NCBI GenBank assembly: GCA_027622665.1 | Contig: JAQBYT010000007.1 | Location: 1-64,000, forward strand | From: Verrucomicrobiota bacterium | Lineage (GTDB): Bacteria; Verrucomicrobiota; Verrucomicrobiia; Opitutales; Seribacteraceae | Direction of reading: 5' to 3' | Length of the DNA: 64,000 nt | Shown here: positions 49,559 through 64,000 of the stretch, piece by piece | Layout of the letters: each line of letters begins with the position of its first letter | How positions within the stretch are numbered: position 1 is the stretch's first letter | Position numbers and translations under genes: made by a program | The notes under the pieces: generated by a model | What the model was told of the DNA's origin: nothing | The model's input: only the letters and a program-made list of their open reading frames with translations | The model's database searches: none

Positions 49559-52500
49559 GTGTTTCCTTTTTGTTTTAGAAAGCTCTTTTTGATATCTGGC
49601 CTTGCCGCCACCGTTTATGGCGTGGATTTCAATCGTGAGGTTCGCCCTATCCTGTCGGAGCATTGCTTCCAGTGCCACGGGTTGGACCAACAAAAGAGCA
49701 AGCTGCGGCTTGACTTCGAGGAATTTGCCCACAAAGGCGGCAAGTCCGGCCTAGCGGCGGTGGCTCCCGGCAAGCCCGATCACAGCGAAATTATTCACCG
49801 CGTGACTGATCGAGACGAGGACCGAATGCCGCCGAAGGGGAAGGGTTTGTCCCAAGGACAGGTCGAGGTCTTGCGTCGCTGGATAGGGGAGGGCGGAAAG
49901 TACGACAAGCACTGGGCCTATGTTTTCCCAAAACGTTCGGTCTTGCCCACGGTCAAGGCCAAAGAGCGTGTTGCCAATGCCATCGATAATTTCACTTTGC
50001 GTCGTCTTGAGGAGCACGGCCTGACTTTTTCCGCACCTGCCGACAAGGCCCGCTGGCTTCGCCGCGCAAGCTTGGATCTGCTTGGATTGCCCCCCACGGT
50101 GGAACAATTAGACGCTTTCTTGGGCGACGATTCGGAAAACGCTCGCGAAAAGGTGGTGGATGCCTTGCAGCAGTCGCCTCGCTACGGTGAGCATTGGGCC
50201 AGACAATGGCTCGACCTGGCGCGCTACGCTGACTCCAACGGCTTTCAAGCCGATCAATTACGGGATAGCTGGGCCTTTCGCGACTGGGTGATCGATGCAA
50301 TGAACGACGACATGCCGTTCGACCAGTTCACTATCGAGCAAATCGCCGGCGACCTCCTGCCTAAGGCGACTTTTTCCCAAAAGGTGGCGACTGGGTTTCA
50401 CCGCACGCCTACCTGTAACGTGGAGGCAGGGGTGCATCCCGAGGAAAACCGCGTCAACCAAGTGGTCGACCGGGTTAACGCCACCGGCACCACTTGGCTG
50501 GGAACCACCATGGAGTGCGCCCAGTGCCACAGTCACAAGTACGATCCCGTTTCCCAGAAAGAGTATTACCAGCTCTTCGCCTTCTTCAACAACACGCCGC
50601 TCGAGGTGAAGGGCGGAGGGGTCAGCTTCGATTTTTGGGGTCCCACCATGGACTTGCCCTCCGACATGGTCCGCAACGGGAAAAAAAAGACCGCAGAGGC
50701 TGCACTGAAAGCCAAGAAAAAGGAACTGGTTGCCGCTAAAAAGGCTGCCGAGGCGAAATTCGAGGACTGGCTCGTTTCCCAACGCAAGAAACTGGGCAAG
50801 GAGAAGGGCTCATCCATTTGGGCGGTGCTCAAGCCGACCAAATGGAAGTCGAGCGGCAAGGAAACCTTCACCTTGCAGGACGACGACAGTTTGCTGGCTG
50901 GTGGCACATCCGGTGACAAGTCGATTTACGAGATCGAGACTGAGGCCCCTAAAGGTCGGTTGGCCTCCCTCCGCTTCGAAACCTTGCTCCATGACAGTTT
51001 GCCGAGTAAGGGCCCGGGCCGCAACCGGACCAATTCTAATCCCAACTTCGTGCTCAACGAGTTGACCGTTTCCCTGCTCGAGCCGGGCAAGAAACCCATG
51101 CCCCTCAAGCTGACCCGAGCCAAGGTCGACTTTTCCCAAGGCAACTTTTCGGCCAACGGCCTGATCGACGGCAAACGCGACCTCAGCAGCGCCTGGGCCA
51201 TTTCTCCCGAGTTCGGCAAGGCCCATTGGGCGACCATGGATCTGGCGAAGCCGGTTGAGCCGGCCCTCGGTTCCAAGCTGATCTTCAAGCTGGAGCACCT
51301 CTATGGGGGCGGTCGCAACGTGGGTCGGCCTCGTTTCTCCGCCTCCCCGGAACCCGCTCGGCAACCCGCTTTGCCCAAGGAGATCGCGGACCTCCTGCGG
51401 AAGCCCAAGCCGACCGACAGGGAAACAAAGAAACTGCTGGGCCGCTACCTCAAGAGCGACGACGAATTGGCCGAGCTGGAAAAAGTGCTGGCTGCGGCCA
51501 AGAAGAAGGTCGACGCGATCAAGCCGGCCACCACCTTGGTCATGGTAGAGATGGACAAGTCGCGCGAAACACGCGTCATGTCGCGAGGCAACTACCTAGA
51601 TCCCAAGCAAAAGGTGGCTCCGGGCACACCCGCCGCACTCCACCCGTGGAAGAAGGAATGGCCCGCCAACCGGCTTGGGTTCGCTCAATGGTTGGTGGAT
51701 CCCGCCAACCCGCTTGTGGCCCGCGTGACGGTGAATCGATGGTGGGGACAGTTCTTCGGGAGCGGCATCGTCTCGACCGAGGAAGATTTCGGTTCCCAAT
51801 GCGAACCACCAACGCACCCCGATTTGCTCGACTGGCTGGCGGTGGAGTTCATGGAGAACGGCTGGTCGATGAAGAAGCTGCACAAGACAATCGTTCTCAG
51901 CGCTACCTACGGACAGAGCTCGCGGGTCACTCCCAAGCTGTTGGAAAAAGACCCGAACAATTTGTGGTTCGCTCGCGGGCCGCGCTTCCGCCTGACCGCC
52001 GAAATGATTCGCGATAACGCCCTTCGTATTTCAGGCCTCTTGAGCGAAAAGATGGGTGGCTCCCCCATTTACCCCCCGCAACCCGACGGTCTTTGGCGGC
52101 AGACGGGGCGCAACGAGCCGAAATACGTCGCCGCCACAAACCAGGACCGCTTTCGTCGCGGCATATACGTCATTTGGAGGCGCGCCGCGCCTTATCCTAG
52201 TTTCGTCAATTTCGACGGACCCGACCGCTCTGCCTGTCATCCCAAGCGCAGTCGTACCAACACCCCCTTGCAGGCTCTCACCTTGCTTAACGACGAGGCT
52301 TACGTCGAGATGGCCTTGGGCCTCGCCGTTCGTGTATTGGAGGACAAGCCGAAGACGGACCTCGATGAACGCCTCCGCTACGCTTTCCGCCGTACCCTTG
52401 CCCGCGAGCCTGATGCCCGCGAGCTGGCCGTTTTGAGAGAACTGCACGCGGGCGAACTGTCACGTTTGAGCGAGGACAAGGTAGCGGCCAAGAAGTTGCT

Positions 52501-52615
52501 CGACGGGATAAAGGTGATCAAGTTCTCCGCCAAGCTCGATCCGAACCAGTTGGCGGCTTGGTTCTTCGTGGCGAACGCCTTGTTGAATCTAGACGAAACC
52601 GTGACTAAGGGATAA
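49559..52615 (+). CDS. Planctomycete cytochrome c / DUF1549 / DUF1553 (PSD1) domain protein
   Basis: [70 protein letters not shown]. Confidence 0.93.
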
Positions 52616-52625
52616 AGGAGCTTTC

Positions 52626-54044
52626 ATGCACCCAATCGACACTTGGCAGCGCAACCTGACGCGGCGGCAATTGTTCCAGCGCGTGGGGATGGGCGTGGGC
52701 GGTTTGGCATTGGCCGACCTAATGGCCCACGACCTCGGAGCCTCGCCCGCCACCAACCAGGTTAGCCACTTTGCTCCGAAAGCCAAGAGCGTGATCTATT
52801 TTCACTTGGTGGGCGCTCCTTCGCACCTCGACCTCTTCGATTACAAACCGGAGCTGCAGAAGCGCAGCGGCGAGCTTTGCCCCGCCGAGATGTTCGAGGG
52901 CAAGCAACTGGCCTTCATCCGCAAGCGTCCGACCTTGCTCGGCACGAGCAAGGACTCCAAGTTCAAGTTTCGCCGCTGCGGGCAATCCGGCATCATGATG
53001 TCGAACCTTCTCCCTCACTTGCAGACCTGTGCCGACGAGATGTGCTTCGTCCGCTCCCTGCGTACCGATCATTTCAACCATGCCCCCGCCCAAATGTTCA
53101 TGCAGACGGGATTCGAGCGCTTTGGCCGTCCTAGCCTCGGGGCATGGGCCAATTACGGTCTCGGCACCCCAAATTCCGACTTGCCCGGCTTCGTGGTGAT
53201 GGTCACGGGGCAATACCCGGGAGCCGGCAACAGTGCCTTCGGCAGCGGTTTCCTTCCCTCCGTCTACCAAGGGGTCGAGTTTCGCGGATCCGGGGATCCC
53301 GTGCTCTTTCTTTCCAATCCCAAGGGCGTCGGTCCAAAGGAACGTCGTCGGGTAGTCGAAGCGGTCAACAAGTTGAACCAACGCCAACTGGCCGACGTCG
53401 GCGATCCCGAGATAGCCACCCGTATCAGCCAGTACGAAATGGCATACCGCATGCAGACCAGCGTGCCCGAGCTGAAGGACCTTTCACGAGAGCCCAAGCG
53501 CGTCCTCGAGTCCTACGGGGCCAAGGTGGGCGGCTCCGGGTTCGCCAACAATTGCCTGCTCGCCCGCCGCATGGTGGAGCGTGGCGTGCGATTCGTTCAA
53601 CTCTTCGATCAAGGTTGGGATCACCACGGAGGGGTTTTCAACAGCCTGCCAGGCAAGGCAAAGCAGGTAGATCAGCCTATCGCCGCCCTCATCAAGGACC
53701 TCAAGGAGCGTGGCCTATTGGACGAGACCTTGGTGGTTTGGAGCGCCGAGTTCGGGCGCACCCCCATGGCCCAGGGCGACCGCAAAAGCATCGGGCGAGA
53801 CCACCACAAGGAAGGATTCACCGTCTGGATGGCCGGCGGTGGTGTAAAGGGAGGCCATGACTTCGGATCGACCGACGAACTAGGTTATGCCCCCGCCGAG
53901 AATCCTGTCCACGTACATGACTTCAACGCCACTATTCTGCACCTCCTCGGCATCGACCACGAGCAACTGACTTACCGTTTCCAGGGGCGCAAGTTTCGCC
54001 TCACCGATGTCCACGGTCATGTCATCCGCGACCTGTTGACTTGA
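52626..54044 (+). CDS. DUF1501-domain protein, Tat-exported
   Basis: TRRQLF Tat motif, [38 protein letters not shown]. Confidence 0.93.
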
Positions 54045-54074: not shown

Positions 54075-55334
54075 TCATTCTTTTCGGAGGGGGTGCCCGA
54101 TGGCGTGTTCTAGGGCGAGGTGAGCGGATTGAAATTGGTATCTGGCCTCGAGGAGTTTGCGACGGACTTCGAAGAGTCCGATGCGAAGCTGGTTTCGTGA
54201 GACAGGATCGATGCCTTGCCCATTGGGGCTTTCCTCGAGGGCAGGAGCAAGCTCGCTTTCGAGGTTTACAGAGGAGATTTCGTGCTCGGCGAGTTGCCGC
54301 GATGCGGCTCGGTAATCACGTAGAGCGCTGGCGAGTGTCAGTCGGAGGTCACGGCGAGCAAGGCGTTGGATAGCGAGATTTTCGTGTAATTCGGCGGTGG
54401 CGGCTTGAATGTCGGCCCGATGTCCCCACATGGGAATCTCTATACCGAGGAGGACGCCCCATTGGTCGGAGTCGGATGAGATGCGCCGATCATGTTCGAT
54501 ATTACCTTGAAAGAAGGAGAACCAAGGGATACGGCGAGCCTCGGCTTGTTGGATACGGGCTCGGGCGGCTTCACCTTCATGTTCGAGTGAGATTAGCTCG
54601 GGGCGTCCCAGAGTGGCAGTTGGAAATAGGTTATTTAGGGTGAGATTGGAGGTGTTTTCATCTGGTTTGGAGAAAGAGGTTACTAGATTTACGGGTGTGC
54701 CTTCGGGTTGGGCGAGGAGTGCGAGTAAGGTGGAAGAAACGCTTTCGTAGGTTCGATCAGCTTTGGAAGCCACGGCGAAAGTTTTGTAGGTCTCTAGTCG
54801 ACTTTCAAGAGCTTTTGGGAGGGTGAGTTGGCCTGCGGCGACAAGGATGTCGTGGGCTGTACGGATGGCCGCTTGGGTTTCGGCGATTTCGTGGGCGAGG
54901 AGTGCGTCTTTTTTTCGATAAAGAGTTTCAAAGTAAAGCCGCTTGACCTCGTAGGAAAGGATGTTTTCAGTCAGCTTGAGTTCTATGCGTGCGACTTCGA
55001 TTCGGGCTTGGCCTTCTTCCACCAGAGCCTTTGTTTCCCATGGGTTGTTCAGTCGAAAGCGTAGGGCATATTCTTGGCTGGATTCACCTGCGAGACGACC
55101 CTCGTCGTGGCTAAGCCGAAGCTCGGGGGCAGGCATGGCGCCGATGGCGCGAAGGCGGGCGCGGACGGATGCTATGCGGGTGCGAGGAGCATCAAGATTT
55201 TCGGTGTTATTCCTCGCCAGTTCGAGGGCTTGTTCAAGTGAAAGATTCCGAGATGCGTTGGCATCTTGGGCGTGACCGAGTGGTGCGGAAAAAATGAAGA
55301 ATGCGAAGATTGCTGCGTGTACGAGACCTTTCAT
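54075..55334 (-). CDS. TolC-family outer-membrane efflux protein
   Basis: Signal peptide, LSLEQALELAR, GRPEL, GIEIPMW, LEHAIG; ATG at 55334. Confidence 0.82.
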   Translation of the reverse strand: MKGLVHAAIFAFFIFSAPLGHAQDANASRNLSLEQALELARNNTENLDAPRTRIASVRARLRAIGAMPAPELRLSHDEGRLAGESSQEYALRFRLNNPWETKALVEEGQARIEVARIELKLTENILSYEVKRLYFETLYRKKDALLAHEIAETQAAIRTAHDILVAAGQLTLPKALESRLETYKTFAVASKADRTYESVSSTLLALLAQPEGTPVNLVTSFSKPDENTSNLTLNNLFPTATLGRPELISLEHEGEAARARIQQAEARRIPWFSFFQGNIEHDRRISSDSDQWGVLLGIEIPMWGHRADIQAATAELHENLAIQRLARRDLRLTLASALRDYRAASRQLAEHEISSVNLESELAPALEESPNGQGIDPVSRNQLRIGLFEVRRKLLEARYQFQSAHLALEHAIGHPLRKE

Positions 55335-55342
55335 CAAAAGAT

Positions 55343-56461
55343 TCAGGAACCCCGGAGGAAGCCGAAAAAACCTATCGAGGTGGTTTCGATGACGACCCAT
55401 TCGCCGGGGACGAAGGCATCGTGATCTTGGCCCGTGATGGAGCGGAGTTGGATGTTGCGTCCGCGAGCCATGCGATTGGGGGCGTTGCGGACGCGCCCGG
55501 GGAAGTTGAGTATGTGAGGGGTAACGGAGACGACCTCCATTCGGATTTGGGCAGAAGGGTTGGTTTCCGAGTATACGACTAGTTCGTCGCCAACGGTGGG
55601 TTGAAGGTGGGCGAAACGTTCGGGTTGAAAGCCCATTACGCGTTTCACTTCCTTACCGTTGGCAGGATCGTACTCCTTAATAATAAGGCGGGCGATTGGT
55701 TCTCCGGCGGGCACGTTTTCGCCTCTTTGGAAGGAGAGTTCGGCTACTACGCCGTCGTTGGCGGCTTTGAGAAAGCAGTGCTCACGACGTTGCTCTAGGA
55801 GAGCGAGGCGGTTGTTGCCGGGTCGTTCGATTGTGTGTACTTCAGCGAGGCGTGCGATGGAATCTTCCAGGTCTGCCTTTACTTTAGAGATGAGCGAGGG
55901 ATGCATATCCCCTCGCTTTGCTAGGACGGCGATCTTGGCCTCGAGTTCACTCACGATTTCTCGGTCCACTAATCCTCGCTCAAGCAATCCTTTCAGCCGT
56001 TCGAGTTGACGGGATAATATGGCTATTTCGGCGGAATCGGAGGCTTGGTCCATGAGAAGTTCGCTAACATCTACGCGAGTGCTTTGGACGGCCGAGGTGA
56101 AGCGACGATCGCGATCGAGACGGTCGAGCTCTAGTTCTTCCTTGATTGAGGCGATTTGTTTATCGATAAGGCTTGTGTCGAGGACGATGAGGAGATCTCC
56201 GCGAGTTATCTTCTGGCCGATTGCGACCTTTATGTCCTCGATGCGTCCCACTTCGCGACTAGAAATGGACTCGAAGTCAAATTCTACGGTTCCGTTTAGT
56301 TCATAATATCCGCCCCCAAATTCGTAAAGGGCGAAGAGTGCGGGAATGAATAGAAGCCAAACGAAAAGAGGCCACTTCCTGCCGATGCGTCCGAGGCTAC
56401 TGCCGCGGTGACGTTTCGGGGCAGGTTTTAGAGATACTGAAGCCGTTCGTTCGTCAGGCAT
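55343..56461 (-). CDS. HlyD-family membrane fusion (periplasmic adaptor) protein
   Basis: N-terminal TM helix, lipoyl half-motifs (GRIEDIKVAIGQKITRGD; KAANDGVVAEL...GENVPAGEPI), long coiled coil. Confidence 0.85.
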   Translation of the reverse strand: MPDERTASVSLKPAPKRHRGSSLGRIGRKWPLFVWLLFIPALFALYEFGGGYYELNGTVEFDFESISSREVGRIEDIKVAIGQKITRGDLLIVLDTSLIDKQIASIKEELELDRLDRDRRFTSAVQSTRVDVSELLMDQASDSAEIAILSRQLERLKGLLERGLVDREIVSELEAKIAVLAKRGDMHPSLISKVKADLEDSIARLAEVHTIERPGNNRLALLEQRREHCFLKAANDGVVAELSFQRGENVPAGEPIARLIIKEYDPANGKEVKRVMGFQPERFAHLQPTVGDELVVYSETNPSAQIRMEVVSVTPHILNFPGRVRNAPNRMARGRNIQLRSITGQDHDAFVPGEWVVIETTSIGFFGFLRGS

Positions 56462-56464
56462 GGC

Positions 56465-57148
56465 TCAAATTTCCACGGTGGAGCGTTGCATGACCATGCT
56501 CACATCCTCGATTCCCTCGATGGCTTCGAGATCGACGATTAGGTCGGGTTTTCCGGACGGATCCAGCAGGCGAACATGGTAGGAGTACTCAACAGCCTCT
56601 CCCTGAATGGCTTCCCGCATGGCGACCATGTTGACGGACGAAGTGTGGCGTTCAAAGACCTCGCGGGTGAGTGCTTCACCAGATTCTCCCTTGGGCAAGA
56701 TGAAGCGAAGCAGACCCTCGAAAGAACGGCGAGAGGCAAAGGGTGAGTAGTGCAGAAAGAGGACGGCGAAACAGAAGAAGAGCGACCCTATTATGGCGAC
56801 GTCAACAACTTGAGCCCCAGCGGCGATGCCCGTGGCGAGACTTGCGAAGAGGAAAATAATGTCGCGAGGATCGCGGATGGGGGTGCGAAAGCGAATGAGG
56901 GCTAGGGCGCCGAGAATGCCGAGCCCGCGAGCTAGGTTGTTGCCTATTGCTATGATCATTATGCAGGCTACGATAGCGGCGAGGGCAATGGTTTGCACGA
57001 AAGTCCGAGAGTAGGAATACCCCGTGTGCGTACGCTGATAGACTGCGGCTAACAACAGCGACATGACAAAACTGAGCAGGAGGGAGAAGAGAATCTGCAG
57101 CGGACTGAACGCCCGAGCGGGTCCCAATGCGTTAAAAATCGCTTCCAT
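56465..57148 (-). CDS. DUF4956-family membrane protein
   Basis: IGNNLARGLGILGALALIRFRTPIRDPRDIIFLF; TM helices plus a C-terminal soluble domain. Confidence 0.88.
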   Translation of the reverse strand: MEAIFNALGPARAFSPLQILFSLLLSFVMSLLLAAVYQRTHTGYSYSRTFVQTIALAAIVACIMIIAIGNNLARGLGILGALALIRFRTPIRDPRDIIFLFASLATGIAAGAQVVDVAIIGSLFFCFAVLFLHYSPFASRRSFEGLLRFILPKGESGEALTREVFERHTSSVNMVAMREAIQGEAVEYSYHVRLLDPSGKPDLIVDLEAIEGIEDVSMVMQRSTVEI

Positions 57149-57980
57149 TTTCGTATGAACAGTTTTCCGAGACATCAGAATAAGTACTGCCTCGAAATAG
57201 GGATTCCAATCTCATAGCAGCTGAATACTTGCAAAATCCGGTGTTCACGAGATCAAAACGTTCAACCATCTCTGCCATCCATTCGGGGAATTCGGTTTCG
57301 GCCTTCAGTTCTAGAATCTGGCCAGGGTATTCGCGGCACAAGGATGTTTGGGTGTCCATCGAGTACCAACGAGCGGATTGGCATGGAAATGTCCAAGAAC
57401 CTCGAGCGGGTCTATAGCGAAGGCGGCGATCAATGGTTACACGGGCATAGCGTTCGCTAATACCCTTGTAGGATTCCCTGACGTAGTTGATGTAGACAAA
57501 TGGTCTTGCGCCTATCTCCCGCACGAGCCGAACGAACTCAAGATAATTCATGTTCTCGGCTTCGTTCACAAAAGGGATAATACTTGTGGGATGCAAAATG
57601 TTTTCCTTTGAATAGTCTTTAGGTTGCAACACTGCACGACTCTTCAGAATCATGATATTAATCTTTCGCTTGATCTCTAGAAAGTAGGGGCATTCGTTGC
57701 CCGTTCCGTATGTGCGTATCCGTAATTTAAAACGGTTTCTAGCCTTGCGTTCTTTTGCGAAATGGAGGGTGGCGTTTGAGGCATCTAGTTGAAGAGTGGT
57801 GACAAGGTATTCGGGGATATCCCCGACAGTGTGCTCATCCTCGTACACGAATGGGCGAATAAACCGTCGGATTTCCGGAACTTGCTTTGGAACGACCACG
57901 TATTTGTACTCGTAGCGATCGATTTGTCGGTCGCTTATTGGGAGAGATGCCTGTAGAGTGCTGATAGTAGGAGTTTTGTG
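57132..57980 (-). CDS. VTC-domain (polyphosphate polymerase, CYTH/TTM fold) protein; start codon unresolved
   Basis: RYEYKY, RFKLRIRTY, FLEIKRK, YVRESY, RVTID, ILELK, FCKY. Frame is open to 57980 but the first canonical start (GTG 57899) lies downstream of RYEYKY. Confidence 0.85.
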   Translation of the reverse strand, partial: HKTPTISTLQASLPISDRQIDRYEYKYVVVPKQVPEIRRFIRPFVYEDEHTVGDIPEYLVTTLQLDASNATLHFAKERKARNRFKLRIRTYGTGNECPYFLEIKRKINIMILKSRAVLQPKDYSKENILHPTSIIPFVNEAENMNYLEFVRLVREIGARPFVYINYVRESYKGISERYARVTIDRRLRYRPARGSWTFPCQSARWYSMDTQTSLCREYPGQILELKAETEFPEWMAEMVERFDLVNTGFCKYSAAMRLESLFRGSTYSDVSENCSYENGSDF

Positions 57981-58173
57981 CTAAAGTTGTAGATTTCAAA
58001 CGAGTAACCAGGGATTGCCAAATTTCTCTCAAGGTCACAAACTAATTTCCAAAAATGATATTACATGGAAACATATGAGGTTTCTCAAGCAAATCGCTTG
58101 TTTTATTCAAAGTCTGTGCCTATAACTTCATGCGAGTCTACCAAATCACGAACCAGTCTATCGTCTATCCCTC

Positions 58174-61100
58174 TTGAATAAAACATCAAATAGTTGGATT
58201 CGAAGGCTAATAGTCGTTCTGGCATGTGCGTCTACGCTGATTCCCCGTTTGTCCTTCGGCGAGGCGATGCTGCAATACTTCAACACCAGTTGGGCGGAGA
58301 TCACTAACCGGATGCCCGAATTGGCGGAAGCGGGGTACTCTTCGCTTTGGCTACCTCCGCCGACGAAGGGAAGCGGGCGACTCTCGGTCGGTTACGACCT
58401 GTGGGACCCGTTCGACCTCGGGGGACGGGAGCAACGAGGCACTTTCCAGACGCGATATGGTACTGAGGCGGAACTGCATCGCTTGATAGAGATGGCCCAC
58501 AGGTTCGGCATTCGTGTCTATTTCGACAATATCATGAATCACCGTGCTTTCGACGTTCCCGGTTACAACGAGCACGCTCCCGAAGACTTATACCCGGGAA
58601 TGCGTCCCGAGGATTTTCACATTAGACGAACCTCTGACGGGCTTTACCGCAAATGGGATAATGTTCGCGAGTGGTGGAGCGAGTGGCAGGTACAAAATCT
58701 CGGACTTTCCGATCTTATAGATATTGCAGCAGAACCTGGAACAACCAACCGAAACTTCGGCGACCGGGAAGGTGCCACGGCGGAGAAGATTAAGTTCCTT
58801 CGACACCCCGACAATCCGGAATTCTATTGTTACGATGCAAACGGCAGCTACGTCGGATTTGGGCAGGACAACGGGCTCACGGTTGAATACCTCGCGCAAA
58901 ACGAGGCCTTTTACTCCGAATACGTTGAGGTTTATCTAAATCGAGCGGCGCGTTGGCTTCTAGACCGTACAAAGGCCGATGGTTTGCGATTGGATGCCGT
59001 AAAGCATATCCCGGCCGATTTTTTCGGCGCCACCTTTGGCGCAGATAGAGATCGTAGCAATTACGGTTACCTCGGGCAGGCTCAGGAGCAATTCAACCTT
59101 ACGCGAGGTTTTTCGGATTGGGACAACCATCGCGATACCGTCTTCGATACCGAGCGTCCGAGAGATGACGCCATGATGTTCGGCGAACACCTGGGGTCAC
59201 CGCCGGCGGTCGATGATTACATCAATGCAGGCATGCGTCTTCTTGATAATGACCTTCGCCATCACCTAAATAGCCAACTTGGTAATCCATTCGGCACCTT
59301 AGCCGGAATGGATGCATCTGGTAGCCATGGCTTTGCTCCCGGTTCTTCAGTTATGCATGCCCAAAGCCACGATAGCGATTATGCTGCCCGACGTGAGTTG
59401 CAACATGCTCTCTACCTGACTCGTGGAGGAATCGGAATAATTTATTCGGACGGCAACCATAAGGCGGGAATTCTCAAAGAGAGCGGAGGAGCTTTTCCAC
59501 GCCATGCAAACACCAATTTCCTTGGTCAATTCGGGGACAATCGCATTCCTAACCTGCTATATTTTCACGAACACTTTGTGAGGGGGTTCCAAGTGGGTCG
59601 CTGGAGCGACGGCGACGTAGTGGTTTACGAACGAGTGGACAAGCGAGACAACCCCGGCATGTCCGATGCGGCAGGTACGGTCGGACTCGTTATGATTAAC
59701 GACAATTACTCGAGTGGTCAGGCACGTGGATTTACCACAGGATTTCTCGCTGAAGGCGGAACGGACAATGACGTTTACCTCTATAATTATTCATCCTATG
59801 GCGGAGGTTTTTTCAAGTATGCCAGCCAGTTAAACCAGGTGGTGATTCCTGCAGGAGGCTATTTCCTGTTTTCATGGAGGAGCCCGGAGCCCTCGGACCT
59901 GTGGGGATTGGCGGGAGGGCATCCTTTGAGCATTTTACAAGATGGGGAAGAGGTGGAAACCATCTCGGTGAGGAGAACTGACGGGCCTGATGGCGATCCA
60001 GCTTTCAATCCTTATGGCGTATCCGATGCCAACCAAACGGACTTTTCTTATTTATGGAAAATCCCAAGGGTAACTAGTGGGAAGAACTTGAAGTTCGTCG
60101 TTCGTGCCGATGGTTCGGCTGAGAACATGTTGCTCAATATCGACGGAGGTATAGATGTTAATGGCAACGGTAAACGGGACAATCCGCCTGCATTTTCCTC
60201 CGATGTTTACCTTGGGTTCGAGCAAATGGATTTCGTCGGAAGGCAAGGGCCGGAGAAATTCGCCGCCGGCGACACAAGTCGCAATATGATAGGATCCGCA
60301 GGGGCAGAAACTTATTGGTGGTCTGCCGATAACGGTTCCTTCTTCACCGTGAACGGTGGTTCCGGAGATGATTCCTATGAAGATGAGACCGCCCACTGGG
60401 CGTATCACGCTCCAGAGCAAAACAATGACCAAGGGGAAAAGCAGTTCAAGGTTGCGGAAAGCTCGGCGACTGTCTGGGTGAAAGTAGGCTACAACCTTGA
60501 GGTGAATCAAGCTCGGCTTTACCATGTGATCGACGGCAGTAATCCCGAAGGGGCGGGGGGGGGCGGTATCGGCACGACGCAAGTTACCTCGTTTGCCTTT
60601 TCCCACTCCGATGGACAAGAGCCCACCGTCGATTGGTGGAAAGCCACCGTTCCTTTGCCGGACTCAGGAATCTTCAAATACAAGATCGGTGTGTATCGCA
60701 ACGAATTGAACGGTGCTTCACTGGCCAGCGTTTTTCCGAAAAACGAGTCCGCTGTGGCTCTCAAAAAGAAGATGCTAACCAGCTTCGAAATAGACGGTTT
60801 CGATGCCGAAGCCATTGAGTATTATCCGCACCGCGACTACGGCGACAAGGTAACTGGTCTGAAGGAGGGTTTCCACTTTGTGAAGGCACGGGCTTTCCTG
60901 AGCCGATTAGGCGAAGCTTCCATCTACAATACCTTTTCGCGTACCTTGTACTACGATACCAAGCGTCCCGAGGGTACGGTCAACTTTCCCGGAAGAGATG
61001 GCGAGGAATTGTTTGGTTCCGAATACGGGTTCGTTGTCCGCACCGATTCCAGCGTGACCGAGGTGCTTTTCCACATTGATGATGACGACCCGACTAACGA

Positions 61101-64000
61101 TGATGGTCAGATTGGCGCCCTCAACGGCAACGGGGAAACCGGCGACGGAAATTCAAGTGCTTGGGCATCCGCCGTGGAAATCACCTCGCGACAAAACCTA
61201 GGAGTCGGTTTTCCGAAGGAATGGCGGTTCAGTTACCGTAATGTGCCCTCGGGCGGGGGTGAGGCCACCGTGCGCATCGCTTTGCGGGAGGCTTCCTCGT
61301 CAACCGACCTGACGCTCAACGAAGAGGAGGGTCACTTCCGCATCCTAGACCGAAAGGTGAAGACTAGCGGTCCCAGTCATCGACTCTTCGTGACTTGGCC
61401 ACAACAGGACGGTGAGAAGGTCGGGCAGGATTACCTCATGAAAACCTACCTCAGTTCAGGACTCGTCGACGGGCGGAGCGATGCGGAGGTAATCGCCAAC
61501 TTAACCGTCAGCATCGACGACTCCGTAACCCAAGAGGCTCCCTATGCTCCCGCCGTAGCCCAAGACATTTCGAGCGCATGGGTGGAGCGAAACGTGACTC
61601 CTGGTTTGGCAGCCCTCGCCTACAAACTTCCCATTTTGCGGAATCCTGCCGGGGCTCCGGACGATTTCAGGCAGACCATTATCGTGGACTACCAGGATTC
61701 CGTGGCGGGCGTCGATCTGCGCACCATCCGCACCGTCGCCACGGATTTCGTAAGTCACGGATCAGCCAACCCCATCCTCACGGTCAACGGGGTTCCCGCC
61801 GACTACACCACGACCAACTTTTTCGTGGATGAGGTTAAGGGAGACGAGGAAACCTTGGAGATTGTTCTCGAGGCTCCCCATGTAATAGTGGCGGAAGTCT
61901 ACACCAACCTGAACAACCGTGATCTCGCTACGGGTGACTCGAACGAAGACGGCATCGAGGACGGTATTCAGCCACCGAACCGCAATTCAGTTTCTCTGGA
62001 TAATAACGCCGGTTACTATAAAGTCCATGCCATGACCCTCGATCCCGCTCGCGGTGAGGCTGGCGCTTGGGTTTGCCAATTGAAGGCCCGCAAGACGGGA
62101 GCCTACCGTTTGACCGCCCGCTTCAAGCTGAAGGACGATGCCGATGTCTGGCACTGGTACACGAGTGAAGGGCGTCGCGATCATGCGGTCGTTGTTACTC
62201 CGAAGGCGGCCCGCGAGGCCATCATGTACGAACTGAACCCTCTCTCTGTCGATGCGACAGGAGACACCTTCGCGACCCGAAGCACCTTCGAGGACCTGCA
62301 CGACGAGAATCGATGGAACCTCGAATACCTGAAGGGAATTGGCGCAAATTGGCTCTGGTTCCAGCCCATCCACCCCCGTGGGATTGACGGACGTGAAATC
62401 GTGAACGGTCAACCCTATGACCCCGGCAGTCCCTACGCGGTAAAGAACTTCTTCGAGGTGATGCCACAACTGAGCGAGGCAAACACTAGACCCGCCGCCA
62501 TGCAGGCCTTTCAGGATTTCGTGATGGCGGCCGACTCCGAGGGAATCGGTGTCATGGTTGATGCTCCCTTCAATCATGTTGCGTGGGATGCGGAACTGGA
62601 TGAAGAGGGTGTAGCAATCTTCGAAACGGGCGTCCCGGACGACGAAATCCGCAAGACGCTTCCTGGATTCTTTTCCCGTAAAGACGACTATGGCCTACCC
62701 GCACGCGACGAAAACGAAATCGCCACGGCTCCCGACCGCGACGACTTCGGTAAGTGGGAGGACGTCAAGGATGTCTACTTTGGTAACTACTCGGCCCTCG
62801 TCCGGGGTAATGACCCCGCCGAACGTAACCCCCATCAGAATGAGGAGGATGTCTTCGACTACGCCGGCGAAGGCTGGAACGACCAGACCCGGAGGACTTG
62901 GAGGTACTTCGCCTCCTATGTTCCCTACTGGTTGGAGAAGACGGGCCTGCCCGCAGGACAGCCAGCCAGCGTTCAAGCCCAAACGGGTATCGATGGCCTG
63001 CGGGCTGACTTCGGTCAAGGCCTTCCTCCCCAGCTCTGGGAGTACGTTATCAATGTGGCTCGCTCCCGCAAGTGGAGCTTCGTCTTCATGTCGGAGGCGC
63101 TGGACGGCGGGGCAGTCACCTACCGCTCGAGTCGGCATTTCGACGTATTGAACGAAAATCTTGTCTTTGCTCAGCAGTCTTTGACAACGCCGGATGGCTA
63201 TCGCTCGGCTTTCGAAAACAGGCGTTCGGCCTATGGACAGAGCCTCCTGTTGCTCAATAATGTTTCTCACGACGAGGAAAACTACCAAGACCCGTGGCAG
63301 GCTTTCATCCGCTACGCCTCTTCCAGTGTCAACGATGGTGTCCCTATGCTTTTTATGGGTCAGGAATTGGGCATCTCTCGGACTTACGGTTTTACCCACT
63401 ACGAAACCAATATGGGCAAGCAGATACCCCACTTCAAGATTCATAACTCGATGCAACCCATCTGGGACAACGGGGACTTTGGGTTAGACCAACTTTACAA
63501 AGCTTACGCGAGTATAGGGCGTGCGCGTTCGGCTAGTCCCGCCCTGAGCTCCTCTTATCGCTATTTCCTTAACGAAATAATCACCAATGCGCCGCACGAT
63601 AAAATCAACGCAACTGCTAAGTGGGAGAACTCCGTTTCCTCGCCCAGTACGTCCGACCTCGTCCTTGCCTTCGTTAATCTGGACCGCGACAATCAGCAGT
63701 CGGGTGCCTTCGACTTAAGTCCGAGTGGAGACGAGGCGCTCCTCGGTCTCGAGAAGGACCACCTTTACAATGTCTCCAATCTCGCCGCCTTTCAGACCGA
63801 GGCAAAGGATGTGTTCCTCTGGCCGCAGGCTCGTTCCGGACATGACTTGCTGGAGAACGGCATCTTCGTTCTCTTAAACCCGGTGCCCCCGGATGCAGGG
63901 GGTTGGACAAATGCTCCCTACGAGGCCCAGTTCCTGAAGGTGCACGACCTTTCCGTTCCCCTGCTTGAAATGAACGCTAGTACAGGAGGGAGCACCAAAG
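58174..64000 (+). CDS. Giant secreted alpha-amylase-family protein with two GH13 catalytic domains, 3'-truncated by the window
   Basis: Translated by hand; absent from the track. TTG 58174 with signal peptide. Domain 1: YFDNIMNH, GLRLDAVKH, FGEH, QSHD. Domain 2: DAPFNH, GLRADFGQG, MSEALD, VSHDE. All sampled segments are in one frame. Confidence 0.9.
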   Translation, partial: MNKTSNSWIRRLIVVLACASTLIPRLSFGEAMLQYFNTSWAEITNRMPELAEAGYSSLWLPPPTKGSGRLSVGYDLWDPFDLGGREQRGTFQTRYGTEAELHRLIEMAHRFGIRVYFDNIMNHRAFDVPGYNEHAPEDLYPGMRPEDFHIRRTSDGLYRKWDNVREWWSEWQVQNLGLSDLIDIAAEPGTTNRNFGDREGATAEKIKFLRHPDNPEFYCYDANGSYVGFGQDNGLTVEYLAQNEAFYSEYVEVYLNRAARWLLDRTKADGLRLDAVKHIPADFFGATFGADRDRSNYGYLGQAQEQFNLTRGFSDWDNHRDTVFDTERPRDDAMMFGEHLGSPPAVDDYINAGMRLLDNDLRHHLNSQLGNPFGTLAGMDASGSHGFAPGSSVMHAQSHDSDYAARRELQHALYLTRGGIGIIYSDGNHKAGILKESGGAFPRHANTNFLGQFGDNRIPNLLYFHEHFVRGFQVGRWSDGDVVVYERVDKRDNPGMSDAAGTVGLVMINDNYSSGQARGFTTGFLAEGGTDNDVYLYNYSSYGGGFFKYASQLNQVVIPAGGYFLFSWRSPEPSDLWGLAGGHPLSILQDGEEVETISVRRTDGPDGDPAFNPYGVSDANQTDFSYLWKIPRVTSGKNLKFVVRADGSAENMLLNIDGGIDVNGNGKRDNPPAFSSDVYLGFEQMDFVGRQGPEKFAAGDTSRNMIGSAGAETYWWSADNGSFFTVNGGSGDDSYEDETAHWAYHAPEQNNDQGEKQFKVAESSATVWVKVGYNLEVNQARLYHVIDGSNPEGAGGGGIGTTQVTSFAFSHSDGQEPTVDWWKATVPLPDSGIFKYKIGVYRNELNGASLASVFPKNESAVALKKKMLTSFEIDGFDAEAIEYYPHRDYGDKVTGLKEGFHFVKARAFLSRLGEASIYNTFSRTLYYDTKRPEGTVNFPGRDGEELFGSEYGFVVRTDSSVTEVLFHIDDDDPTNDDGQIGALNGNGETGDGNSSAWASAVEITSRQNLGVGFPKEWRFSYRNVPSGGGEATVRIALREASSSTDLTLNEEEGHFRILDRKVKTSGPSHRLFVTWPQQDGEKVGQDYLMKTYLSSGLVDGRSDAEVIANLTVSIDDSVTQEAPYAPAVAQDISSAWVERNVTPGLAALAYKLPILRNPAGAPDDFRQTIIVDYQDSVAGVDLRTIRTVATDFVSHGSANPILTVNGVPADYTTTNFFVDEVKGDEETLEIVLEAPHVIVAEVYTNLNNRDLATGDSNEDGIEDGIQPPNRNSVSLDNNAGYYKVHAMTLDPARGEAGAWVCQLKARKTGAYRLTARFKLKDDADVWHWYTSEGRRDHAVVVTPKAAREAIMYELNPLSVDATGDTFATRSTFEDLHDENRWNLEYLKGIGANWLWFQPIHPRGIDGREIVNGQPYDPGSPYAVKNFFEVMPQLSEANTRPAAMQAFQDFVMAADSEGIGVMVDAPFNHVAWDAELDEEGVAIFETGVPDDEIRKTLPGFFSRKDDYGLPARDENEIATAPDRDDFGKWEDVKDVYFGNYSALVRGNDPAERNPHQNEEDVFDYAGEGWNDQTRRTWRYFASYVPYWLEKTGLPAGQPASVQAQTGIDGLRADFGQGLPPQLWEYVINVARSRKWSFVFMSEALDGGAVTYRSSRHFDVLNENLVFAQQSLTTPDGYRSAFENRRSAYGQSLLLLNNVSHDEENYQDPWQAFIRYASSSVNDGVPMLFMGQELGISRTYGFTHYETNMGKQIPHFKIHNSMQPIWDNGDFGLDQLYKAYASIGRARSASPALSSSYRYFLNEIITNAPHDKINATAKWENSVSSPSTSDLVLAFVNLDRDNQQSGAFDLSPSGDEALLGLEKDHLYNVSNLAAFQTEAKDVFLWPQARSGHDLLENGIFVLLNPVPPDAGGWTNAPYEAQFLKVHDLSVPLLEMNASTGGSTK

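Follow-up and report, generated by a model that had tools for sequence, protein, structure and literature searches.

Operon layout and gene content

Towards the end of the window, as we call the whole 64,000-nucleotide stretch of Verrucomicrobiota DNA analysed here, four co-oriented genes encode a VTC-domain protein, the membrane protein DUF4956, a periplasmic adaptor and a TolC-family outer-membrane duct (Table 1). These genes form a conserved unit that contains no pump gene and co-occurs with secreted CotH kinases. An earlier note on this DNA had described them as a complete operon with one 17-nucleotide overlap and gaps of 3 and 8 nucleotides, and this layout is reproduced by ATG starts at 57148 (DUF4956), 56461 (adaptor) and 55334 (TolC; taken from the sequence and followed by a signal-peptide-like N-terminus). 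The unit is bounded by a convergent DUF1501 gene that ends at 54044 and a divergent gene that begins near 58174. The motifs that the note had picked out in the VTC protein (RYEYKY, KLRIR, LEIK, ILELK and KY) are all present.

Table 1. Features of the VTC-DUF4956-adaptor-TolC locus, in window coordinates
Feature	Position	Strand	Match or remark
VTC-domain protein (Vtc4-like triphosphate tunnel enzyme), ~277 aa	57132..57965	-	PF09359, E 1.4e-29
DUF4956 predicted inner-membrane protein, 227 aa	56465..57148	-	PF16316, E 3.3e-12; weak MgtC match
EmrA/HlyD-type periplasmic adaptor, 372 aa	55343..56461	-	TIGR00998, 1e-12, below its cut-off
TolC-family (OEP) outer-membrane duct, ~419 aa	54075..55334	-	PF02321, E 4.6e-20
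A+T-rich intergenic stretch, operon to divergent giant gene	57966..58173		putative shared promoter region
Giant secreted protein gene, 5' part	58174..64000	+	runs on to G000:C22:73152

The VTC protein

The reading frame of the VTC gene has no ATG, GTG or TTG upstream of RYEYKY and is open to 57980; the ATC at 57965 is likely its start codon. This ATC is kept in position in G002, G004 and G005 as well (four genomes in all), G001 and G013 have ATG, and a common start codon was found in 69 of the 72 other VTC genes checked. Because the start region has no indel in two other, independent DNA assemblies and comparison with three relatives gives a dN/dS of 0.08-0.14, the gene looks intact; together with the conserved ATC, these observations led us to reject a pseudogene or a frameshift at the start.

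A profile search of the PDB matched Vtc2, Vtc3 and Vtc4 only (best E 4e-24). For the structural model (pLDDT 91), the nearest Foldseek match was again Vtc4 (E 2e-13, TM 0.6-0.69), with hydrolases of the triphosphate tunnel metalloenzyme (TTM) family matching more weakly (E 2e-7). Thus, by both profile search and fold match, the protein resembles Vtc4 more closely than a triphosphatase, the case that the earlier note had named as refuting its reading. Residues R73, R75, E210 and K237 align with Vtc4 R264, R266, E426 and K458 (numbering by hand from the profile alignment) and are invariant (54/54). Equivalents of Vtc4 K200, K281, Y359, R361 and K428, which we take to line the tunnel, are kept as well. 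A triple mutant of Vtc4 R264, R266 and E426 is inactive according to the accessible text of PMC9911596; K458 is catalytic, and hydrolase activity is linked to a patch of four glutamates that Vtc4 lacks, according to that of PMC4641920. At three of the four positions of this patch the VTC protein appears to have basic residues as Vtc4 does (R8, K99/R101 and K212; mapped by spacing, without superposition). Judged by sequence and modelled fold, the VTC protein likely is a polyphosphate (polyP) polymerase.

The 277-aa protein consists of the tunnel domain alone, with no SPX domain, no fused membrane domain and no membrane helix. VTC and DUF4956 are fused in one protein elsewhere (P0012, a single sequence). 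A second, different VTC type occurs in the order VTC-CotH-DUF4956 at G002:C69, G013:C46 and G010:C3 (L197, L198 and L200).

The DUF4956 protein and the adaptor

The model of DUF4956 (pLDDT 82) has five predicted membrane helices and a C-terminal ACT-like domain. An R86-F87-R88 motif is invariant (54/54), and the charge pattern of the protein suggests that it lies where a membrane helix ends on the cytoplasmic side. The arrangement of an N-terminal membrane part and an ACT-like C-terminus resembles that of MgtC proteins, and MgtC C-domains are among the fold matches (Z 9.3, root-mean-square deviation 3.1, 89 residues aligned), the MgtC family PF02308 scoring below its cut-off. Fold and sequence searches gave no solved relative of the membrane part, and an Atlas search returned unnamed matches only, all under 0.8. 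A complex prediction with three DUF4956 copies and VTC scored 0.14 and 0.04 against a mark of 0.32. DUF4956 is fused to CotH in P0018 and P0019 (one sequence each); a weak search of 10 longer proteins found no DUF4956-adaptor fusion. Four clusters (P0014-P0017) have DUF4956 fused to a PF06439 domain and P0011 has it fused to LamG. At L168-L178, longer DUF4956 proteins carry an N-terminal PepSY-like domain and have no VTC gene within 1.5 kb; a calcineurin-like phosphoesterase gene adjoins three of them.

The adaptor has a basic N-terminal tail and one membrane anchor (aa 32-50), and its best PDB match is EmrA (4tko, E 1e-27). Because DUF4956 has almost no periplasmic loops, a contact between the two proteins would be expected inside the membrane, where the adaptor anchor could reach DUF4956. 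Adaptors of this clade (at least 148 bits) were found in 28 genomes, all VTC-positive, most of which had been in the training alignment; in VTC-negative genomes no score exceeded 132 bits, the value of an ABC-linked adaptor. In G212, the VTC-DUF4956 pair, which is nested in the adaptor clade, has lost the adaptor, and an adaptor and TolC lie at another locus.

Conservation of gene order

Gene order was followed in two surveys, which overlap so that their counts do not add: a GTDB scan keyed on DUF4956 alone, from which the best 80 of 262 relatives were kept as loci, and a sample of 301 genomes of the phylum. In the 80-locus survey, VTC lies directly upstream of DUF4956 at all 78 loci with enough sequence and the adaptor directly downstream at 79 of 79. 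TolC follows the adaptor at 46 of 70 loci and is missing at 24. RND or MacB genes were found at none of the 80 loci with self-built profiles (from two and one sequences, respectively). A Pfam scan of sixty chosen neighbours gave varied families, among them an ABC ATPase after TolC at L129 and an MFS gene at L155.

VTC was found in 48 of the 301 sampled Verrucomicrobiota-level genomes. At 51 VTC loci from 47 other genomes, the gene after DUF4956 encodes the adaptor (26 loci) or a Porin_O_P protein (4), CotH is adjacent at 18, and 3 have none of these; TolC comes next after the adaptor at 15 of the 25 loci with sequence. Sister lineages thus have either a gene of the phosphate-porin family or CotH where the adaptor would stand. 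At one locus, L032, a MacAB-type set with its own adaptor follows the adaptor. For these loci 84 proteins were scanned out of ~470 unlabelled neighbour genes. The complete four-gene order recurs in G001, G002, G004, G005, G011, G013, G041 and G042. Thus, throughout Verrucomicrobiota the order VTC-DUF4956-adaptor is fixed and pumps are as a rule missing, which is the outcome that the earlier note had looked for, and of its four-gene set the first three members are constant and TolC is optional.

In the order of G138, DUF4956 is present in 96 of 251 genomes. Among the 30 loci listed there, VTC is upstream at 14, followed by a porin at 11 and a prepilin-like gene at 3; another 11 have a longer open reading frame without VTC within 1.5 kb, and the five checked are PepSY-like-DUF4956 fusions. 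The prepilin-type N-methylation protein stands directly after VTC-DUF4956 at L180, L183 and L187, in place of the adaptor, porin or CotH. In trees of 54 DUF4956 and 54 VTC proteins (the latter made by a quick search), the adaptor type neighbours the porin type and occupies one or two branches.

CotH and the divergent giant gene

At genome level, the partner that accompanies VTC most constantly is CotH. It was found in 47 of 48 VTC-positive genomes of the phylum sample versus 20 of 253 VTC-negative ones (Fisher p 9e-38, which overstates the association because related genomes are not independent). For 61 closer relatives the figures are 13 of 14 and 0 of 47; the one VTC-positive genome without CotH has a short VTC fragment only, and in the near-complete G003 and G007, of the same genus, VTC, CotH and the adaptor are all missing together. 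The earlier note had set CotH aside with the remark that the operon holds no CotH gene. That remark is true of the operon and nevertheless misleading, since the divergent gene, past the end of the window, holds the only CotH match of the source genome (G000, 93.5% complete); setting CotH aside was not borne out. VTC, DUF4956 and CotH each have one match in G000, all at this locus, which therefore represents the known VTC-DUF4956-CotH triad with an adaptor and a duct added. For cytosolic polyP, PPK1 and PPK2 are encoded in G000 as well. In one genome, G041, 27 CotH matches stand against just one VTC operon, a ratio that would suit a shared supply for many kinases.

The divergent gene spans 5,008 codons from stop to stop, for a protein of ~4,990 aa. 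Its likely start is a TTG at 58174; the N-terminus that follows looks by eye like a signal peptide of the Sec type, and further on the protein has two GH13 amylase-like regions, lamin-tail, LamG, Fn3/chitobiase and CotH kinase domains and Ig-like repeats. With the likely ATC of the VTC gene, both divergent genes would thus begin without ATG. The CotH domain lies at C22:65848-66903, and its match covers positions 2-320 of the 322 of PF08757. D2775 and D2807, conserved in six aligned rows, are candidate counterparts of the catalytic aspartates D228 and D251 of Bacillus subtilis CotH. Neither the CotH domain nor a porin had a phmmer match in the PDB.

A divergent gene bearing CotH or GH13 is also found in G001, G002, G004, G005, G008 and G013. 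The GH13 N-terminal region occurs in 39 of the 301 phylum genomes, many of which have no VTC, and usually in ~2,800-aa proteins; we therefore rejected a specific tie to the module and regard this region as a frequent neighbour only. Double-GH13 giant genes stand beside VTC loci in other families, apart from the CotH gene (L057, L072, L075 and L021). A kinase together with an amylase recalls the glucan phosphorylation of plant starch breakdown. If CotH used surface polyP as donor, it might here phosphorylate glucan or surface proteins from within the giant amylase.

A proposed route for polyP export

We propose that the VTC protein, like yeast Vtc4, would synthesise polyP in the cytoplasm with ATP as its substrate, and that an oligomer of DUF4956 would take up the chain with its invariant arginines at the cytoplasmic helix end. 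Polymerisation, perhaps with the membrane potential, would stand in for a pump. The EmrA-like adaptor, anchored by its own helix, would bridge to TolC, and the product would skip the periplasm. Where the TolC gene is missing, the adaptor would use another TolC, and sister lineages would use a barrel of the phosphate-porin family. The product would then serve the CotH kinase domains that giant surface proteins, exported by Sec, carry; outside the cell these domains otherwise lack an obvious phosphoryl donor.

We tentatively prefer, as a possibility short of a probable one, that a phosphate polymer made by VTC is passed through DUF4956 and the adaptor-TolC duct. Use of the exported product by CotH as phosphoryl donor is about half as probable. 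It is doubtful that the module represents a fourth class of tripartite exporter in which a polymerase is the inner-membrane engine and surface polyP is used by CotH. We take DUF2490 to be an outer-membrane barrel. The strongest argument for export comes from the slot after DUF4956, which is filled by either of two unrelated outer-membrane conduits, one of them of the phosphate-porin family; to this can be added that DUF4956 lies beside DUF2490 in Bacteroides (PMC10434189, in its accessible part). The synthesis and export that the earlier note had proposed are in keeping with the linkage, the absence of a pump and the Vtc4-like enzyme, and less so with an optional TolC and a DUF4956 for which no likeness to Vtc1 was detected.

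Several observations weigh against this proposal. The known role of Porin_O_P channels is uptake. TolC, as seen above, is often missing, CotH was seen at 13 of the 80 loci, and CotH or lamin-tail lies within the fetched flank at only 20 of the 80. Since the adaptor type is confined to one or two branches, the high linkage counts stem from one or two origins followed by long retention, and count as inheritance rather than as repeated evidence. Second adaptor copies (G120 and G355; L159 and L160) occur with no VTC-DUF4956 in the fetched region; those at L159 and L160 are accompanied by a TolC gene and a two-component system. DUF4956 also occurs without VTC nearby, has an MgtC-like build and is possibly regulatory; the membrane domains of Vtc1 and Vtc4 are not among its listed fold and sequence matches, in searches dominated by the ACT domain. 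The VTC-DUF4956 and DUF4956-CotH fusions, being single sequences, are possibly gene-calling artefacts. In the VTC protein, E10 is invariant (54/54), a position that is Thr in Vtc4 and a second-metal ligand in hydrolases. Because AtTTM3 has a Vtc4-like tunnel and makes no polyP (PMC4641920, accessible text), polymerase activity of the VTC protein is likely at most. The CotH of Bacillus subtilis uses ATP, according to the part of PMC7821199 that is available. An assayed bacterial VTC protein was not found in the open-access literature, to which our search was confined (subscription papers lay outside its scope).

Alternative explanations

The same envelope-spanning machine may carry out a different chemistry, with VTC acting as a phosphotransferase or short-chain triphosphatase and with ATP, triphosphate, pyrophosphate or a phosphorylated glycan unit or small molecule as the cargo that CotH uses. 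This would suit the invariant E10 and the ATP-dependence of Bacillus CotH, and it draws on the general point that TTM activity cannot be read from tunnel residues. It would also suit the position of the triad, beside Pel polysaccharide genes in Gram-positives (in the accessible text of the sources given below) and beside GH13 giants here. Yet three of the four acidic-patch positions appear basic as in Vtc4 (by the spacing-based mapping), the Lys458 equivalent is invariant and the fold is nearest to Vtc4, and we consider this alternative rather unlikely. It is improbable that the adaptor and TolC serve a pump encoded elsewhere, or type I secretion of the CotH protein, with VTC and DUF4956 as co-regulated helpers. 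TolC is indeed optional, the sets at L032, L129 and L155 include transporter genes, and G000 has two ABC_membrane genes over cut-off (partners not checked). Against a pump in trans, however, the adaptor directly follows DUF4956 at 79 of 79 loci of the DUF4956-keyed survey, the L032 pump has its own adaptor, the RND and MacB genes of G000 adjoin their own adaptor and/or TolC genes, and no EmrB (TIGR00711) match over cut-off was found in G000. Type I secretion of the giant CotH protein was rejected as the principal explanation: its N-terminus resembles a signal peptide of the Sec type, it has no RTX family match, and neither the operon nor any recurring neighbour was found to include a HlyB/PrtD-type ABC transporter.

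The direction of transport may instead be inward, polyP or phosphate from outside entering through the porin or duct and DUF4956 while VTC runs backward or hydrolyses the polymer, so that the cell is fed. A Porin_O_P protein in the third slot, a marine habitat and calcineurin-like phosphoesterases beside some VTC-less DUF4956 genes are in its favour. Scavenging, however, leaves the tight tie to secreted CotH kinases unexplained, the scanned neighbours include no recurrent phosphatase or Pst gene and adaptor-TolC ducts are established exit routes, so that uptake is quite improbable. DUF4956 could also be an MgtC-like ACT sensor that tunes VTC, the polyP staying in the cytoplasm and never passing through DUF4956; its ACT fold and weak MgtC match point this way, and a near reading appears in the accessible text of bioRxiv 10.1101/2024.04.20.589940. 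Such signalling would leave unexplained why two unrelated outer-membrane conduits fill the next slot in two-membrane bacteria and why DUF4956 neighbours DUF2490 in Bacteroides, and of the explanations considered here we regard it as the least probable.

Relation to known systems

Export of a VTC product through DUF4956 and the duct, the reading we prefer, invites comparison with the eukaryotic VTC complex (yeast Vtc4/Vtc3/Vtc1; PDB 3g3q, 7ytj and 8i6v). Both have a tunnel enzyme with the Vtc4 catalytic residues and a small multi-helix membrane protein with conserved arginines, and a coupling of synthesis to transit is proposed here. Unlike in the eukaryotic complex, the enzyme is separate, soluble and without SPX, one hydrolase-type Glu is kept and an adaptor-TolC duct is added; the membrane partner is DUF4956 (MgtC-like plus ACT, five helices), in which no likeness to the three-helix Vtc1 was detected. 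The TTM tripolyphosphatases (AtTTM3 and E. coli YgiF) share the tunnel fold, the first metal-site Glu and one acidic-patch Glu with the VTC protein, whereas their four-glutamate patch is not kept, most of its positions being basic, and the fold match is weaker than to Vtc4. Like EmrAB-TolC, an MFS tripartite pump (PDB 4tko and 8zar), the module has an EmrA-closest adaptor with an N-terminal membrane anchor and a TolC-family duct; unlike it, the module has no EmrB (a 14-helix MFS protein), and the 227-aa DUF4956, with no known energy coupling, occupies the inner-membrane slot. It also differs from type I secretion, whose HlyB/PrtD-type transporter and RTX substrate have no counterpart here, the giant protein having an N-terminus like a Sec-type signal.

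The triad of VTC, DUF4956 and CotH is already in print, with no function given there. In their accessible text, bioRxiv 10.1101/768473 describes it as an accessory to Gram-positive pel loci (cotH, polyphosphate polymerase and DUF4956, the same three families, adjacent), PMC2879425 lists it in a Clostridium perfringens locus, and bioRxiv 10.1101/2024.04.20.589940 reports that its deletion did not abolish Pel, assumes polyP to be cytoplasmic and, with the queries used, saw the triad nowhere but in pel operons. In the genomes surveyed here, by contrast, the triad is common outside pel operons. The present locus differs in its two-membrane host, in the added adaptor and TolC and in having CotH as a domain of the divergent 5,000-aa GH13 protein; its flanks (DUF1501/DUF1549 genes and the GH13-CotH giant) contain no pel genes, no genome-wide pel search having been made. 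The adaptor-TolC form of the triad was not found in the literature searched. PMC10657179 and PMC13318637 contain nothing on bacterial VTC in their accessible parts, and PMC6514570 concerns a different 'VTC'. The four-gene module is a real, conserved two-membrane variant of a known gene set, and there is a fair chance that it is a new class of pump-less exporter.

The operon addresses two questions, how bacteria release polyP and what fuels the numerous CotH kinases that non-sporulating bacteria secrete, and it is a compact candidate that names an enzyme, a membrane step and an exit duct. The first question is illustrated by extracellular polyP in Bacillus cereus that is PPK-independent and has no known route (2026 preprint PMC13484657, accessible text); because that B. 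cereus has no VTC4 homologue, it is an example of the question and not of this system. If the proposal is true, the module would be a dedicated bacterial route of polyP secretion and explain the fuelling of secreted kinases. TolC exporters would then gain a class that works without a pump, and the eukaryotic VTC machine would gain a counterpart in bacteria, within a group common in seawater.

Flanking sequence and occurrence

No consensus promoter was found in the intergenic stretch between the operon and the giant gene. The promoter scan gave 1 site versus 2.9 expected, the terminator scan 6 versus 4.7 expected. A plasmid search returned 3 weak matches, all unannotated. In two metatranscriptome libraries, assembled contigs extend over parts of each of the four genes and over the intergenic stretch, a coverage that cannot show transcription. 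On the other side of the operon, positions 49559-54044 hold an ordinary pair of DUF1549/DUF1553 cytochrome-c and DUF1501 genes, which differs between close relatives and is therefore not part of the module. Marine and estuarine sequencing runs contain this stretch of DNA.

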